From: Deltaproteobacteria bacterium | GTDB taxonomy: Bacteria > Myxococcota > Kuafuiibacteriia > Kuafuiibacteriales > Kuafuiibacteriaceae | Assembly (NCBI GenBank): GCA_040218735.1 | Contig: JAVJQW010000046.1 | Location: forward strand, 64,001 to 128,000 | Length of the DNA: 64,000 nucleotides | Direction: 5' to 3' | Shown: piece by piece, positions 39,443 through 60,001 of the stretch | How the letters are laid out: each line of letters begins with the position of its first letter | How positions within the stretch are numbered: position 1 is the first letter of the stretch | Translations under genes and position numbers: made by a program | Notes under the pieces: model-generated | What the model saw: only the letters and a program-made list of their open reading frames with translations | What the model was told of the DNA's origin: nothing | Databases searched by the model: none

Positions 39443-40660
39443 ATGCACACCTCGACGCCGCGATTCGCCTCGGGCCTTCTCCTCGCCCTCGTCGTCACCG
39501 CTTGTTCGGGAGGGGAGGAACCACCGCCCCCACCGCCGCCGACCCAGGTCCAGCTCACCGTGGTCGACGCGGTCGACGACGGGCCCCTCGCCGGCGCCTT
39601 CGTCTACGTCGCGGGCTCCGCCGGGTGGACCGAGGTGTCCGCGGACGGGGTCGTGACGCTGGAGGTCGACCCGGGCACCCACGCGTACTGGGTGGTCGCC
39701 CCGATGCACGTCACCGTGCCGCCGCCGCTCACCGACGCGCCGACGGTCGAGGCCGCCGCGAATCAGACCACCGAGGTGCGCGTCGTGGTGGACCGCCGCA
39801 GCGTCGGCGCCGCCGACGGGACGATCCGCGGCACGGTGACCGTAGACGGTACCCCCGCCGAGGGCGTCCTCGTGGTCGCCGCCGGCGTCCCGTCCTACGA
39901 GGGGTACTCGGACGCGACGGGCGCCTACGTGATCGCGGGCGTCGGCAACGGCAGCTTCCAGGTGCGCGCGCGGCAGGGCGGCACCGCCGGTGACGCATCG
40001 CAGAATGTCACGACGACGGCGGGGCAGACCTCGGACGGCGTCGACTTCGCGTTGGTGTCCGGCGGACAGGACGTGACCGGCACGATCGCCGGGGGCACCG
40101 GCTCCGGGCGCGTCGCGTTGCTCGACCCGGATGTTCGCCGTGTCGTCCCGGGGCTCTCGGTCTCGGCGGATCTGGCCTCCGGCTACACGATCACGGGCGT
40201 GCCGGCGGGGCGGTACCGACTGCTCGGCGCGTTCGACGCGGACGCCTACGTGATGGACCCCGAACCGATCCGCGAGAACGGGCTGCCCGTCGTCGACGTC
40301 GACGCCGCCGCCGTGACGCAGGACTTCGGCGTCGCCCCCGCGATCGATGGCCTCGCGCCGACGGGCACGGCGACGGCGACGCCGGAGCTCTCGTGGGCAC
40401 CGTTTGCAGGCGCGGACTACTACGTCGTCGACTTCCGTGACGCAGCGGGTCGAACCATCTGGGGTGGCTTCGACGCGACGGGGAACTGGTCGACGCGGAC
40501 CTTCGACACGTCCGTGATGTATGGCGGTCCGGCGCTCTCGCCGGGGGCGCGGTACACGTTCCGCGTGTTCGCTGCGGTGCAGGACCCGATCGTGCCCTCG
40601 GTGTTTGCGTTGGTCGCGGCGAGCGAGGCGGAGGGGGCGTCGTTCCGCGTGGCCCGGTGA
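39443..40660 (+). CDS. Lipoprotein with carboxypeptidase-regulatory-like beta-sandwich repeats
   Basis: Lipobox VTAC, poly-Pro linker, G-x-I-x-G-x-V...DATGAY-x-I-x-GV repeats. Confidence 0.75.
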   Translation: MHTSTPRFASGLLLALVVTACSGGEEPPPPPPPTQVQLTVVDAVDDGPLAGAFVYVAGSAGWTEVSADGVVTLEVDPGTHAYWVVAPMHVTVPPPLTDAPTVEAAANQTTEVRVVVDRRSVGAADGTIRGTVTVDGTPAEGVLVVAAGVPSYEGYSDATGAYVIAGVGNGSFQVRARQGGTAGDASQNVTTTAGQTSDGVDFALVSGGQDVTGTIAGGTGSGRVALLDPDVRRVVPGLSVSADLASGYTITGVPAGRYRLLGAFDADAYVMDPEPIRENGLPVVDVDAAAVTQDFGVAPAIDGLAPTGTATATPELSWAPFAGADYYVVDFRDAAGRTIWGGFDATGNWSTRTFDTSVMYGGPALSPGARYTFRVFAAVQDPIVPSVFALVAASEAEGASFRVAR

Positions 40661-40701
40661 GGGTTGACGTGGTTTCGAAAGGGTGGTCTGCGAAGAGGAC
40701 C

Positions 40702-42345
40702 ATGCGCGTTCGAACCGGGTTCTTCCTCATCGGCCTCTCGGCCTTCAGCTACGCCTGCGGCGGGATCTCCAACTGCAAGGAGGACGGCGCCGCGTGCGCC
40801 GAGATGCTGAACAAAAACGCGGAGAAGTGTGCCGCGGCCTACCAGCTCCGGCAGTCCGAGAAGAACCGGAAGTACTGCGTCAACGCGATCGACGTGGTGG
40901 GCGACCAGAAGATCGCCGCTGCGCTCCCCGGCCTGAAGGCGGTCCTGGCGGTTCCGGACTCGGACGTGCCGGACGACAAACACCGCGAAGAGGCGGTGAA
41001 GTCCCTCGCGCAGATCGGCGACGCGAGCGCGGTCCCGGATCTGGTCGCGGCGATCAACTTCACGGCGGGCACCAGCTCGGACCCGAAGGACAAGGCGGCG
41101 AACCTCACGAACGAGGCGATCGCGCAGGCGCTCGGTCAGCTGAAGGCGAAGGAGGCGGTGCCGAAGCTCATCGAGCTCACGAACAAGAGCCCGAACAACT
41201 ACGTCGTCCTGAAGTCGGTGCGTTCGCTCGGGCAGATCGGCGCGAAGGAGGCGGTGAAGCCGCTGGAGAAGATCGCGCTCGAGCACTCGAACAAGTTCAT
41301 GCGCAAGAACGCGGTCATCGCGCTGGGTGACATCGGCGATCCGTCGGCGACGGAGACGCTCATCCAGATGATGTTCGTCGAGTACCAGGGGGTGTCGTTC
41401 TACAAGGAGGCTTCGTTCGGCCTGTACCAGATCGGCCCGGCGACCTCCGAGGCGCTGATGAAGACGATGGCCGGCGAGAACAAGGAAGTGAACGCGTACT
41501 TCGAGAGCAAGGGTGGCCTGAAGACGTCGGCCATCAAGGCGAAGTGCGGGTTCGTGCTCGGTGACCTCCGCGACCCGCGCGCCGTCGAGCCGCTCCTCGA
41601 GGCCTTCAAGGAAGCGGCCGAGAAGCCGGACCCGGTGGTGCTCGTCTACGCGGCGGCGCCGCTCGGCGCGCTCGGCGACAAGCGCGCGGTGGGCCCGCTC
41701 GCGAAGGAGATGCTGACGCTCGACGCTTCGCTGCGCGACCCGATGATGCGTGCGCTCAACCACCTCGGCGATCGCTCGGTGGTGCCGGAGATGATCGAGG
41801 CGATGACGAAGGAGCACTTCGTCAAGGCGTGCATGAAGTCGGGCAACTCGAAGGAGGCCTGCACGAGCGACCAGACGAAGGCCTCGCTCTACGGCGCGCA
41901 GAAGGCGGCGATCGACCACGCGTCGAACCTCGCGGGCGCTGAGCACCTCGACGCCTACAAGAAGGCGGTCGAGGCCGAAGAGGACAAGGACATGAAGGAG
42001 TACGCGCAGGCGCGCCTGAAGCGCGTCGAGGCTGCGGGCGAGTGCAAGATGGACCCCGGCTGCTGGGTCAAGAAGCTGCAGGACTCCGACAAGCTGATCC
42101 GCGAGAAGGCCGCGTGGGAGCTCGGCCGCATCAAGGACAAGGGCTCGCTCGACGCCCTCGCGAAGGCGCTCCAGGACAAGAAGTCCGAGCCGCGCTCCGC
42201 CGCGATCATGGCGTACTGGGCCTTCGGCGACAAACGCGCCGTCGAGGCGATCGAGAAGCAGCTGGAAGACGAGGCCGGGATGGCGGACTACGTCCGCGTG
42301 AACGAGGACCTCAAGCGCCTGTTGGTCCACCTGAAGCGCTCGTAG
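40702..42345 (+). CDS. HEAT/PBS-lyase repeat lipoprotein
   Basis: SD GAGG, lipobox SYAC, repeated A-x-x-LG-x-IGD-x-x-AV-x-x-L. Confidence 0.85.
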   Translation: MRVRTGFFLIGLSAFSYACGGISNCKEDGAACAEMLNKNAEKCAAAYQLRQSEKNRKYCVNAIDVVGDQKIAAALPGLKAVLAVPDSDVPDDKHREEAVKSLAQIGDASAVPDLVAAINFTAGTSSDPKDKAANLTNEAIAQALGQLKAKEAVPKLIELTNKSPNNYVVLKSVRSLGQIGAKEAVKPLEKIALEHSNKFMRKNAVIALGDIGDPSATETLIQMMFVEYQGVSFYKEASFGLYQIGPATSEALMKTMAGENKEVNAYFESKGGLKTSAIKAKCGFVLGDLRDPRAVEPLLEAFKEAAEKPDPVVLVYAAAPLGALGDKRAVGPLAKEMLTLDASLRDPMMRALNHLGDRSVVPEMIEAMTKEHFVKACMKSGNSKEACTSDQTKASLYGAQKAAIDHASNLAGAEHLDAYKKAVEAEEDKDMKEYAQARLKRVEAAGECKMDPGCWVKKLQDSDKLIREKAAWELGRIKDKGSLDALAKALQDKKSEPRSAAIMAYWAFGDKRAVEAIEKQLEDEAGMADYVRVNEDLKRLLVHLKRS

Positions 42346-42547
42346 ACACGCCGAGCCCTTCGAGCAGGCCGCGCAGCTCCTTCATCGCTTGGTCGAGCTG
42401 CTCCATCCGATCCGCGTTCCGCACCGCCGCCATCGCGATGTCCTCGCCGCAGTGCGGGCACGCGACCTCCTCCGGTTTCACGAAGCTCTTGCACGCGTGG
42501 CACAGCGCGAGCTGCGGCGGGACTCGGCCTTTCGCTCGGTTCGTCAC
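42311..42547 (-). CDS. Small Zn-ribbon protein (78 aa), third gene of the radical SAM operon
   Basis: CHAC-x9-CPHC followed by an amphipathic helix. GTG start overlaps the rSAM stop (GTGA). Confidence 0.7.
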   Translation of the reverse strand: MTNRAKGRVPPQLALCHACKSFVKPEEVACPHCGEDIAMAAVRNADRMEQLDQAMKELRGLLEGLGVSTSASGGPTGA

Positions 42548-43803
42548 GCGAGCACCACCAGTCGGGGGTGTCCGACCTGCGTGTGGCGCGGCTCGGCGGC
42601 GATGCGCTTCACTTCGGCGCCGTCGTCGATGCGTTCCTCGATCAGCTCGAAGCCGCCGTAGTCGAACGGCTGGCCGGGCGCCGCGCGCACCTTGACGATG
42701 CGCTCGCGGAGGCCCTCTTCGGCGAGCTTGAGCGCGCGGTAGTGGCAGTACGGGTTGTTGCCGCTGCGACCGAACAGCGTGTGCGTCGTCCACGTGCAGC
42801 CCGCGCGGCAGACGTCGGCGTAGTAGCAACCTTGGCAGCGCCCCCACAGGTCCGCCGTGGTGCGCGTGCGGTTGAACGCGAGGGCGTCGGCGTCGTTCCA
42901 GATGTCTTCGAGGCTCAGGTCGCGGATGTTGCCGCCCGAGAACGGCGTAGTCGGGAGCGACGGGCAGCCCTTGATCGTGCCGTCCGCCTCGATGCCGAGG
43001 GTGTTGAGCCCCGCGTTGCAGCCCTTGAAGTGGCTGAACTCACTCCGCCCGCGCCACGCGTGTTCGTAGGGGCCGAAGTAACCGATGTTGTTGCCGGGGA
43101 TGAGGTCGATGCCGTGGACCTTCGCCTTCTCCCAGAGCTCGAACAGCACCGGATAGATCTCGAGCAGCTCGTACGGCTGCACCAGGAGCGCGTCGTTGTC
43201 CGCGGCGCGGCCCATCGCGACGGTGAGTTGGATCTGCCAGGTCGCGATCCCGATCTCGATGAAACGATCGAGCATCGCCGGGAGCTCGCCGAGGATCGAG
43301 CTGTGGATCTGCGTGTTGACGCTCAGCTCCATGCCGTAGCGCTTGCACGTCTCGAGCGCGGTGATCGCCTTGTCGAACGAGCCCGGTACGCCGCGGATCG
43401 CGTCGTGTGTCTCGGCGAGCCCGTCGATCGAAACGCCGATGACGCGCAGCCCCGCCTCCGCCGCTTCGGCGACGCGTTTCTCGGTGAGGTTGCGCGCGCC
43501 GGTCTGAACGCCCGGCAGCATCCCCGCGTCCGCGACGGCGCGGATGAGCGTCGTCCAGTCCTTGCGGAGGTACGCTTCGCCGCCGATCAGCGTGACCTCA
43601 CGGCAGCCGAGCGCCGCGAGCTGCGTGACGACGTCGAGGCACTCCGCAGTGGACAGCTCGTCGGGGCGTCGGCGCGCGGCGCGCGACCCGCAGTGGTTGC
43701 ACTCCAGGTCGCACGCGAGCGTGATCTCCCAGACCGCGTGGGCGGGGAAGGGCGACGTCCAGTCGTCCTCCGTCAGCCTTCGGCCCGAGTCGATCGTCGC
43801 CAT
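42544..43803 (-). CDS. Radical SAM/SPASM peptide/protein maturase, resembling the TIGR03913/PlpX splicease clade
   Basis: VWEITLACDLECNHCGSRA (CxxxCxxC), LIGGEAYLR, WQIQLTVAMGRA, PGNNIGYFGPYE. SPASM C-x-AG...GCPSL...CQGCYYADVCRAGC and NNPYCHYR. Confidence 0.88.
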   Translation of the reverse strand: MATIDSGRRLTEDDWTSPFPAHAVWEITLACDLECNHCGSRAARRRPDELSTAECLDVVTQLAALGCREVTLIGGEAYLRKDWTTLIRAVADAGMLPGVQTGARNLTEKRVAEAAEAGLRVIGVSIDGLAETHDAIRGVPGSFDKAITALETCKRYGMELSVNTQIHSSILGELPAMLDRFIEIGIATWQIQLTVAMGRAADNDALLVQPYELLEIYPVLFELWEKAKVHGIDLIPGNNIGYFGPYEHAWRGRSEFSHFKGCNAGLNTLGIEADGTIKGCPSLPTTPFSGGNIRDLSLEDIWNDADALAFNRTRTTADLWGRCQGCYYADVCRAGCTWTTHTLFGRSGNNPYCHYRALKLAEEGLRERIVKVRAAPGQPFDYGGFELIEERIDDGAEVKRIAAEPRHTQVGHPRLVVLA

Positions 43804-43805
43804 CG

Positions 43806-44429
43806 TCAGTTCCCTTGGATCGCCGCGTTGAGATCCTTGAGCGCTTCCATCGAAGCCGTCACGCCCTGCGGGGTCTCCGTCGAGCCACGCATGACGTTGG
43901 AGGCGCTCGCCGTCGCGAACACCGCAGCGCCGCGGCGCGGTGCGGCCGCGATGCCCGTGCCGTCGGTCGACGTCGTCGCCACAGAGGCGACCGGCGTCAG
44001 CGTGTCGGCCGCGTGCGCGGAGAGCATGCGCGCCATCGCGAGCTTCTCGGGGTTGCTCGGATCAGCGCGGACCTCTTCGGCGGCGCGACGAATCGCCACC
44101 GCGTACAGCGCCACGATCTCGTCGCCCGGGCGCGTGTCGGGGAGCGCGCCCATCATGCGGAGGAACGTCGCGCGCGCGGCCGGCTCCATCGCCTTGCCGC
44201 CGAGCAGCTTCGCGAGGCCTTCGCGGGCCTCCTTCGCGTAGGTCGTGGGCCCGCCGTCCATCGCGCGCGCGGTCGCCGGGTCGGCGTCGAACGCGGCCTT
44301 GATCGCGTTCATCTCCTGCCAGGTGATCTGCCGGCCGCCGAGGCTGCCGGAGTCGGCGAAGGCGTCGACTTGGATCTTCGCGGCGGCGAGGAGCTGTTGG
44401 GTGGTGTTGGGCGTCTTTCCGATGGCCAT
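43806..44429 (-). CDS. Hypothetical 207-aa protein, candidate substrate of the adjacent radical SAM enzyme
   Basis: SD GGAG; stop is 2 nt before the rSAM start; internal PGDEIVALYAVA motif. Confidence 0.75.
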   Translation of the reverse strand: MAIGKTPNTTQQLLAAAKIQVDAFADSGSLGGRQITWQEMNAIKAAFDADPATARAMDGGPTTYAKEAREGLAKLLGGKAMEPAARATFLRMMGALPDTRPGDEIVALYAVAIRRAAEEVRADPSNPEKLAMARMLSAHAADTLTPVASVATTSTDGTGIAAAPRRGAAVFATASASNVMRGSTETPQGVTASMEALKDLNAAIQGN

Positions 44430-44490
44430 GGAGGTTCTCCGAGTGCGTTTCTAGCGGGCGGGGTGTGGGTGCATGACGGCCCGTGTAGTT

Positions 44491-44586: not shown

Positions 44587-45237
44587 CTACAGCTGGGTCA
44601 TCGCGTACGCGTAGAGCTTGTACGCTTGGGTGCCGGGGTCGTTGTACGGGACCCCGAGCGTCGCGCAGAGGCGGCGATCGTAGAGCAGGTCGACGACCTT
44701 CTCGTGGATCTGGTGCTGCTGCGCCTGCGTGAGCGTCTCCCACTGCGCCGCGACCTGTGCCTCCGAGAGCACGGGCGTCGTGAGGTCCTCGGCGGTGACG
44801 GTCTGGGCCACCCAGGGGCGCGCGGCGGGTCGAAGCTCGACGTTTGCGCGCGGATCGTTCGTGCGGAGGAGCCGCGCGAGGTCACACGCCTTCGCGAGCG
44901 TCGTCAGGAGCTCGGCGGGAGACCACGGCTTGCCGACGAAACGAAACACCTGCGTCTCGTTGATCGCACGAATGACGGTCGAGCGCCGCGGGTCGCCGGT
45001 CAGCAGAATGGTGACGACGCTCGGGTGCCGCTCCGCGATCCACGCGAGCAGGTCGAGCCCGGTCGACCCCGGCATGAGGTGGTCGGCGACGACGACGTCG
45101 ATGCGCGTGGAGTCGAGGAGCGTCTGCGCGTCGTTGACGCACTCGACCGGATAGACGCGCGCGCCCAACTTCTTCACGACGCGCGAGAGCGTTCGAAGCT
45201 CGGCGCGGTCGTCGTCGACCAACAGCACGTGATCCAC
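44587..45237 (-). CDS. Response regulator (receiver plus unknown C-terminal domain)
   Basis: LLVDDD, VVADHLMP, LLTG, FVGKPW. SD GGAGAGG before the GTG start. Confidence 0.8.
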   Translation of the reverse strand: MDHVLLVDDDRAELRTLSRVVKKLGARVYPVECVNDAQTLLDSTRIDVVVADHLMPGSTGLDLLAWIAERHPSVVTILLTGDPRRSTVIRAINETQVFRFVGKPWSPAELLTTLAKACDLARLLRTNDPRANVELRPAARPWVAQTVTAEDLTTPVLSEAQVAAQWETLTQAQQHQIHEKVVDLLYDRRLCATLGVPYNDPGTQAYKLYAYAMTQL

Positions 45238-45367
45238 CGGCGGTTCCCCTCTCCCCGGAATAACACGAGGGACCGAGTGTGGGTTGCACCGAGTTGAGAT
45301 TAACTTCACGTCGCGCTTGGAGAACGCCCGGACGTTCGGACAGGTCTGCGGCGGCGCGCCGGCCCGG

Positions 45368-59820: not shown

Positions 59821-60001
59821 GGCCTGGGTCGGCAAAGACCTTGTATACGCTGCGGGACGCTTGGGAGACCTCGAATGGACCCTTCGTATCGATCCCCGCT
59901 CCCAACAGGTCGTTCACGTGGAGACCTACGAGTGATTAACAGTGCTCCTCCGGCCGGCCAATGCTGGCACCAGGTTCGCCGACGTTCGTACGAGGAAAGC
60001 T

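Follow-up and report, generated by a model that had tools for sequence, protein, structure and literature searches.

Can a radical S-adenosylmethionine (SAM) enzyme of the splicease type act on a protein-sized substrate in which the tyrosine of the candidate splice site is followed by alanine and not by glycine? The question is raised by three genes on the minus strand of a 64,000-nucleotide stretch of Deltaproteobacteria bacterium DNA (GenBank assembly GCA_040218735.1, contig JAVJQW010000046.1, positions 64,001 to 128,000), here called the window. They encode A207, the presumed substrate, X419, a radical SAM/SPASM enzyme, and Z78, a Zn-ribbon protein (Table 1). The operon is a split-gene, divergent member of the annotated, uncharacterised TIGR03913/DUF1843 family. 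Sequence comparison makes it rather probable that X419 excises tyramine at Leu108-Tyr109-Ala110 of A207, with Z78 acting as a detached activator domain.

By its profile and domain matches X419 is an intact radical SAM/SPASM enzyme of the TIGR03913 family and is splicease-like. It matches the NCBIfam profile TIGR03913 with 571.8 bits over profile positions 5-401 of 477, and Pfam places a Radical_SAM domain (77.6 bits) and a SPASM domain (36.5 bits) in it. The CX3CX2C motif and the seven SPASM cysteines are invariant in an alignment of 29 enzymes. X419 is 50% identical (187/375) to a Nostoc plasmid protein of the PlpX class, annotated by PGAP as 'nif11-class peptide radical SAM maturase 3'. The initial annotation had placed the enzyme inside a TIGR03913/PlpX-like group from a set of signature motifs; all of these motifs are present, and the placement is borne out by the hidden Markov model (HMM) matches and by the identity to the PlpX-class enzyme. 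A search for a solved splicease structure found none, and the best structure matches to X419 by sequence are SkfB and PqqE.

The end of the TIGR03913 profile is matched by Z78, which covers the last 58 positions (420-477) with 45.1 bits (E 4.6e-12). X419 and Z78 together span the model and their bits would sum to about 617, although no single polypeptide passes the cut-off. Among the best 120 of 6834 X419 homologues, 94 are proteins of 465-565 amino acids (aa) in which a CxxC...CxxC ribbon is fused after the SPASM domain; the remaining 26 (405-443 aa) are without a ribbon. Against a fused 516-aa Azospirillum enzyme the alignment of Z78 covers residues 438-514 (38% identity, E 1e-13), and against P0071 it covers residues 425-464. 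The match to the tail of the profile, the fused homologues and the alignment to fused tails together argue that Z78 is the detached C-terminal domain of the maturase. By homology, then, it is the C-terminal Zn-ribbon-plus-helix domain of the TIGR03913 family encoded as a separate open reading frame (ORF), and not a new partner. A direct search for longer proteins holding the Z78 ribbon had returned none; this was a false negative, as the fused forms were later found via the enzyme.

The start codon of Z78 is a GTG that shares the sequence GTGA with the TGA of X419, and this overlap couples translation of the two genes. Twelve places in the phylum score 560-596 bits on TIGR03913, and in every one a ribbon ORF in the -1 frame lies downstream, its ATG or GTG overlapping the TGA of the enzyme. 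A thirteenth split locus, from a metagenome, shows the same arrangement, so that (A/G)TGA is present in 13/13 split loci. A frameshift or assembly error as the cause of the split is ruled out by this recurrence. Programmed -1 frameshifting to fuse X419 and Z78 was also considered and rejected, since no slippery heptamer was seen before the stops (by inspection only). At 11 of 12 split loci the enzyme ends, in the region of X419 residues 404-419, in a basic-hydrophobic tail before the overlapping stop. These tails read RLPVL(A/P/T), RLVVLA or LPILVSP; the enzyme of locus L011 ends differently.

The ribbon family has four invariant cysteines (12/12 members), an N-terminal KGR(L/V)PPQL motif and a C-terminal helix. 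Z78 had been described as CHAC-x9-CPHC plus a helix and without tyrosine; it does contain no tyrosine, but the spacer is of ten residues and not nine. That the Zn-ribbon gene is a partner in the system agrees with its conservation across related loci. A resemblance to the ribbons that lead precursor peptides had also been proposed and was found by hhalign (94% over 27 columns), which is modest evidence as ribbons resemble each other generally. The origin suggested for Z78 did not hold, the ribbon being a detached maturase domain and not one borrowed from a leader. Sister splicease clades of the phylum are without a downstream ribbon gene, and in their YG precursors a Zn ribbon comes first and a hydrophobic membrane-type segment next.

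The genome that carries the window has two more splicease-like radical SAM/SPASM genes outside it, L002 (G000:C67:25215-29435) and L003 (G000:C28:67344-71492), with TIGR03913 scores of 452 and 400 bits and both without a ribbon ORF downstream. Each follows a precursor made of a Zn ribbon, a hydrophobic membrane-type segment and YG motifs, one with four x-YG-LPP/KAPP repeats and the other with MACYGLPPC. In another myxobacterial splicease clade (L030 in G290 and L027 in G212) the precursors have five tandem PPVVARYGVIRPP or PPIAMRYGLPAP repeats, and there is no Zn ribbon in the precursor or in a downstream ORF.

A207 is predicted to be mostly helical and signal-less, and no Pfam or NCBIfam family matches it. 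As the initial annotation had stated, it contains only two tyrosines (Y64 and Y109) and neither a YG nor a Y-x10-GDL motif. A word-based search gave three close homologues (91, 71 and 50% identity), and in the 50%-identical relative Y64 is replaced by Phe while DEIVALYAVA is kept. A manual alignment of Y64 to RPMYG had raised the possibility of a second site; this was dropped on account of the Phe in that relative and because MAFFT does not align Y64.

For the other 11 high-scoring enzymes of the phylum we compared the upstream genes. Eight of these genes encode proteins of 174-194 aa with two Tyr-Gly sites each, every site being followed by helices; the sites read RP(M/L)YG(V/I)FIRD and (I/V)AMYGVV(F/L)RDDL. 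The other three (175, 211 and 359 aa), all from the window's own family of genomes, contain (P/E)IVALYAVAI. Y109 of A207 aligns with the splice-site tyrosine of the Tyr-Gly substrates, and across 14 YA- and YG-type substrates no column other than Y109 and L200 is invariant. L200 lies in the C-terminal amphipathic helix, for which the AlphaFold2 model of A207 has a predicted local distance difference test score (pLDDT) of about 80 in the block 187-205. A helix of the A-x-K-x-L-x-x-A-L type also ends the YG-type and DUF1843 substrates. The motif I-V-A-L-Y-A is invariant in 11/11 YA-type relatives, eight of which are only 14-26% identical to A207, so the check for conservation of LYA among homologues that the initial annotation proposed turns out in its favour.

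A substrate profile was searched against 1.84 billion representatives and matched 46 proteins at E <= 0.001. Eight of them contain IVALYA, and five of these eight are without any YG. The three long IVALYA forms that remain also have an upstream SPYG, and a fourth long form, one of the five without YG, has SAFG there. A further protein combines LMYGV at the first site with SLYAVV at the second, 36 have YG only and one has lost the site tyrosine. Pattern scans for IVALYA-type motifs gave 17 genome stretches and 126 metagenome stretches; one locus was confirmed per scan, and most YA-type loci from these scans are known from the motif match alone and not from gene context. Among the YG-type relatives, P0012 (PITGAS) and P0016 (PLSGGV) have lost the first-site tyrosine and kept the second, and in P0025 Ser replaces Tyr (ALSGAL) at the sole retained site. 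Sites can decay one at a time, because each of these three has lost a single site tyrosine.

Within its own genome (96.5% complete), nothing but A207 matches the substrate profile. A DUF1843 search of this genome gave no match over the cut-off. There is no small ORF with Y-x10-GDL near the operon; the one regular-expression match in the window, at 59887, is in an Arg-rich frame. Structural look-alikes of A207 were sought in the atlas without a usable match (all template modelling scores < 0.5). A complex prediction of X419 and Z78 with A207 as the partner scored 0.00 against a mark of 0.32, and counts neither way.

What, then, is A207 related to? In plasmid records with annotated TIGR03913 maturases, the substrates are DUF1843 peptides (54-70 aa) and DUF1842-DUF1843 proteins (about 200 aa). 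DUF1843 substrates have the motif h-h-x-Y-x10-GDL followed by two helices, an example being VRPYGPAMVEAISTGDL. When the YA-type alignment, with A207 as master, is compared with 13 DUF1843 domains by hhalign, the match is given at 94% (E 1.4e-7). Residues 103-151 of A207 fall on DUF1843 positions 3-43, with Y109 on the conserved tyrosine and an 8-residue insertion at GDL. Relatives of A207 score directly on the DUF1843 profile: P0041 has 41.8 bits and passes the threshold of 23.3 bits, P0017 has 23.0 and P0045 has 15.6. P0041 is of the YA type and comes from a locus with an enzyme and an overlapping ribbon ORF (L041). By these alignments A207 is a remote, GDL-less relative of the DUF1843 substrates with a different helical N-terminal half.

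The residue after the tyrosine in the 13 DUF1843 domains is Gly in nine, Ala in three and Met in one. Of three Aureibacter peptides two have Ala, as has one of three Ralstonia proteins; the Met case is PMYMATV of Azospirillum. In Aureibacter and in Ralstonia, YG and YA substrates share an operon and one enzyme: the Aureibacter tunicatorum operon combines a fused enzyme with two Tyr-Ala peptides and a single Tyr-Gly peptide. The two Azospirillum B510 peptides have Tyr-Gly and Tyr-Met. The initial annotation had taken VALYAV for a Tyr-Ala variant site. The site is indeed a conserved Tyr-Ala, but it is not singular, as annotated DUF1843 operons also have Tyr-Ala. In the second DUF1843 peptide of Azospirillum sp. 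B510 plasmid pAB510c (L042:2566-2790), where the site is Tyr-Met, the annotated start MYMATV puts the conserved tyrosine at residue 2. The frame is open upstream with an in-frame Met (MSEKLHFPHYPMYMATV...), and the annotated start is probably too late.

Searched across the phylum, TIGR03913 matched 92/401 sampled genomes at E <= 1e-80. In a tree of 32 enzymes from the phylum the four YA-locus enzymes form one group (support 99/97); this grouping counts as one event because it coincides with taxonomy. A co-adaptation of the enzyme to Tyr-Ala through H22/Q100/G123 was considered, as this combination at first appeared specific to the four YA loci against 25 others and is also present in a fifth YA locus. 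It was refuted as YA-specific by the finding of HQG in 95 of the 120 nearest homologues, including enzymes with YG substrates.

These comparisons suggest the following course of events. Z78 would be made by coupled translation and would re-associate with X419, where it may fill the role of PlpY or of a leader helix, activating the enzyme and helping to dock the substrate. The X419-Z78 pair would bind the DUF1843-like module of A207, that is, the site plus the downstream helices. By radical chemistry X419 would then excise a tyramine equivalent (C8H9NO, -135.07 Da) from Y109, leaving an alpha-keto-beta-leucine before Ala110. What results would be no released peptide but a helical cytoplasmic protein of about 200 aa with an electrophilic ketoamide in it. 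The precedent for a cellular role of such a ketoamide-bearing A207 is, by analogy, covalent protease inhibition. We infer by the same kind of analogy that the Zn-ribbon-plus-helix module of TIGR03913, fused or split, is the natural counterpart of the PlpY activator.

A number of observations weigh against tyramine excision at Tyr-Ala. X419 alone is about 20 bits short of the TIGR03913 cut-off (591.75 bits), and on the PlpX-class profile TIGR04103 it scores 476.3 bits against a cut-off of 725, which is 249 bits short. A207 itself has no match to DUF1843 (Pfam PF08898, threshold 23.3 bits) at E up to 10, and its AlphaFold2 model, although helical, has a mean pLDDT of 62.5, which is low to moderate confidence. 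The Pfam scan found no PqqD-like RiPP (a peptide made by ribosomes and modified after translation) recognition element (RRE) in Z78, its nearest families being Zn ribbons, and a PlpY-like role of Z78 is argued by analogy from position and domain fusion. The characterised splice sites are all X-Tyr-Gly in the available text of PMC11414181, PMC10533398, PMC11626197 and PMC9811515, and that text has one YG site (DYG of RcsA) that is not processed, so context matters. Our literature search found no paper showing the reaction of a TIGR03913 enzyme or of a DUF1843 substrate; the 2022 survey's own text was outside its scope. A search for papers linking spliceotides to XYA, Tyr-Ala or a zinc ribbon likewise found none. 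Proteins of the DUF1843 family are called uncharacterised in three papers: a crystallography study of a DUF1842-DUF1843 protein, as far as its accessible portion goes (PMC10994174), a quorum-sensing transcriptome of Chromobacterium subtsugae in which DUF1843 proteins are induced (PMC12114271) and a stationary-phase study of Burkholderia thailandensis in which they are also induced (PMC12322963).

Three other explanations have to be weighed against these data. One concerns the part played by Z78 only. Radical SAM enzymes need an electron donor, and Z78 could be a rubredoxin-like metal centre that gives electrons to the clusters of X419, and not a docking or activating module. Its four invariant cysteines form two knuckles, the second of which, CPHCG, we take to resemble a rubredoxin knuckle. 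The spacer between the knuckles is of 10 residues, however, while in rubredoxin roughly 28-30 residues separate them, and it is with Zn-ribbon families that Pfam groups Z78. The related ribbon at the N-terminus of precursors in sister systems that have no ribbon gene fits recognition better, and the conserved helix that follows the ribbon has a parallel in PlpY's activating helix as described in the accessible part of PMC11414181. We hold a redox role for Z78 to be very improbable. A207 might also not be processed at all: the Tyr-Ala would be a dead site, and A207 a protein that binds or regulates the enzyme without being its substrate, or part of a decaying system. The X-Tyr-Gly rule among characterised sites in the sources available points this way, as do the loss of GDL and of any Pfam signal from A207 and the loss of a site tyrosine in P0012 and P0016 (first site) and in P0025. 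Set against this are the invariance of IVALYA in all 11 YA-type relatives, most of them very distant, the retention of every catalytic cysteine in X419 and of the three-gene unit in at least four genera, the standing of A207 as the only candidate substrate in a nearly complete genome, and the persistence of YA paralogues beside YG ones in other operons. We regard a dead site as quite improbable.

The remaining explanation, which we consider unlikely, though it is the strongest of the three, is that X419 modifies Tyr109 by another radical reaction (a C-C or C-O crosslink, beta-hydroxylation or epimerisation) and that TIGR03913/DUF1843 is a distinct sister of the PlpX spliceases. The equivalog models TIGR03913 and TIGR04103 are distinct from each other, and the distance of X419 below the TIGR04103 cut-off has been given above. 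The residue after the tyrosine is not fixed as Gly in DUF1843 domains, H22/Q100/G123 prevails among the nearest homologues of X419 whereas the PlpX-class and myxobacterial YG enzymes have Y/T/S at these three positions, which are conserved otherwise, and for a TIGR03913-family reaction there is the negative literature search. This has to be balanced against the 50% identity between X419 and a PlpX-class enzyme (375 residues aligned), which have all cluster cysteines in common, and against a site context, h-A-M/L-Y-G/A-V, that is near-identical to the PlpA3 core. A review, in its accessible part, describes a 2022 survey (Scott et al.) that judged candidates by how frequent YG motifs are next to the enzyme, and gives PlpX-like enzymes in 189 genera and 27 confirmed splicease-substrate pairs taken from YG-rich PlpX-like systems (PMC10849128). 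The survey may include the TIGR03913 family. Weighing all three explanations, we retain tyramine excision at Tyr-Ala, aided by Z78, as the better account of the locus.

The positions of the features discussed are given in Table 1. The A207 stop is followed by a 2-nt gap and the ATG of X419, and the genes lie head to tail. The three-gene operon described in the initial annotation, with this gap followed by a GTGA overlap, agrees with the ORF coordinates and the sequence.

Table 1. Coordinates of the A207-X419-Z78 operon and of its sequence features (positions in the window)
Feature	Position	Strand	Basis or remark
A207 (207 aa, presumed substrate)	43806-44429	minus	ORF
X419 (419 aa, radical SAM/SPASM)	42544-43803	minus	ORF; HMM matches
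Z78 (78 aa, Zn-ribbon plus helix)	42311-42547	minus	ORF; HMM match
GGAG, Shine-Dalgarno-like site	44437-44440	minus	7 nt upstream of A207 ATG, from sequence
GTGA overlap, Z78 start / X419 stop	42544-42547	minus	sequence; -1 frame
CX3CX2C radical SAM cluster motif of X419 (C31, C35, C38)	43690-43713	minus	invariant in 29-row enzyme alignment
SPASM region of X419 (C262, C280, C323, C326, C332, C336, C353)	42745-43020	minus	invariant Cys; Pfam SPASM residues 262-327
Zn-ribbon knuckles of Z78, CHAC-x10-CPHC (C16, C19, C30, C33)	42449-42502	minus	Cys invariant in 12/12 family members
A207 I105-V106-A107-L108-Y109-A110, proposed splice site	44100-44117	minus	Y109 codon 44103-44105
A207 C-terminal amphipathic helix, residues 187-205, with invariant L200	43815-43871	minus	candidate docking element

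The order substrate gene, enzyme, ribbon is common to 13/13 related loci examined, and at least four genera have retained the three-gene unit. A congener has the same three genes (72% identity for A207 and 91% for X419); its locus has no response regulator, and the immediate neighbour of the substrate gene is a glyoxalase gene. Because the neighbours differ in the congener, the conserved unit is of three genes. A domain scan of seven neighbouring ORFs in the window gave a response regulator, a glyoxalase, a HEAT-repeat protein, a glutamate dehydrogenase, a thiamine pyrophosphate (TPP) enzyme, a DAO oxidase and one ORF without a family. No protease, transporter or PqqD domain was found among these seven, as had been claimed for the adjacent genes. 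The response-regulator receiver gene (44587-45309, minus strand) lies 157 nt upstream of A207; being absent from the congener locus, it is probably not part of the unit. On the other side, the 3' end of Z78 shares 35 nt (42311-42345) with a convergent HEAT-repeat gene on the plus strand (40657-42345). Relatives do not conserve the final residues of Z78 (...VSTSASGGPTGA), and for this reason its true functional end is taken to be the helix.

Near-identical copies of the operon are present in contigs of other metagenome runs. One 33.5-kb metagenome contig covers this region in full, at 63 differences and 5 gaps; four of these gaps, in a variable region of A207, cancel in net length. Metatranscriptome contigs (two libraries, one study) match 229 nt of X419 with 2 differences and 151 nt of A207 with 1 difference. 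These contigs are not evidence of operon transcription, because DNA carry-over is possible.

The wider implication, which we hold with a little less than even confidence, is that splicease chemistry may not need Gly after the tyrosine. TIGR03913 enzymes would then cut at Tyr-Ala and perhaps at Tyr-Met; the widespread DUF1843 and DUF1842-DUF1843 proteins and divergent relatives such as A207 would be natural ketoamide-bearing proteins and not RiPP precursors, and in the Zn-ribbon tail there would be a detachable natural equivalent of the PlpY activator. If Tyr-Ala is processed, the X-Tyr-Gly rule used in mining for spliceases and in designing splice tags is too narrow. The link would also give a testable function to a DUF1843 family of 'unknown function', and nature's own fused and split enzymes allow the activator-helix idea, which came from engineered X-Y fusions, to be tested. 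In its host the system would indicate an intracellular protein whose backbone is edited and which bears an electrophilic ketoamide.

Comparison with known systems puts the operon closest to the annotated TIGR03913/DUF1843 operons, such as that of Azospirillum sp. B510 pAB510c and those in Burkholderia, Ralstonia, Chromobacterium and Aureibacter records. The enzyme family and the H22/Q100/G123 type are the same, the substrates lie directly upstream, after a conserved tyrosine there is a helical module with an amphipathic helix at its end, and both protein-sized substrates (~200 aa, DUF1842-DUF1843) and Tyr-Ala sites occur. The window differs in that the ribbon is a separate overlapping ORF and is not fused, in that X419 alone lies 20 bits under the cut-off and in having one substrate gene where those operons have several paralogues. 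In contrast with the DUF1843 substrates, A207 is without GDL and without a Pfam match, and its helical N-terminal half is unrelated to DUF1842. In the same phylum, myxobacterial proteins with two Tyr-Gly sites (175-211 aa; RPMYGVFIRD and IAMYGVVFRDDL) occur with a split radical SAM enzyme and Zn-ribbon ORF in 8 genomes. They share the three-gene unit, the (A/G)TGA overlap and homologous substrates with Y109 and L200, and their enzymes are the sister group in the 32-row phylum tree (99/97). Each of these proteins has two Tyr-Gly sites, unlike A207, and at positions 22/100/123 their enzymes have Y/T/S where X419 has H/Q/G.

The cyanobacterial PlpA/PlpX/PlpY and PcpAXY systems (TIGR04103) have the same order of substrate, radical SAM enzyme and small ORF with a 4-nt overlap. 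In the type I operon of Nostoc, a Nif11 precursor (...IALYGLPPELF) and the enzyme are followed by a 71-aa ORF that overlaps the enzyme stop by 4 nt. Besides the 50% enzyme identity, the small third protein ends in a helix in both cases. The hydrophobic context of the site is like that of the PlpA3 core: the YG relatives of A207 read IAMYGVVF, which is close to the PlpA3-derived splice tag GAVAAGYGVVFPG given in the accessible text of PMC10533398. The differences are that A207 is not a Nif11/NHLP leader-core peptide, that its site is Tyr-Ala and not Tyr-Gly, that Z78 is a Zn ribbon plus helix and not a PqqD-like RRE fragment, and that there is no epimerase, protease or exporter near the A207 operon. 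According to the accessible part of Richter et al. (2024; PMC11414181), the Y protein is a required activator encoded downstream of X; in the model its helix binds at the site taken by the leader helix in binary systems. The same source describes active engineered C-terminal X-Y and X-leader fusions and, outside the cyanobacteria, splicease pathways without a Y protein. Finally, in the type II binary system RhaX/RhaA of Rheinheimera and in the engineered RhaX-leader and PlpX-PlpY fusions, the activating helix comes from the substrate, from a separate protein or from a C-terminal fusion. The natural module of the window, with its putative activating role, differs from that of RhaX/RhaA in containing a Zn ribbon. 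By analogy, nature's equivalent of the RhaX-leader and PlpX-PlpY arrangements would seem to be the TIGR03913 enzyme in its fused and split forms.

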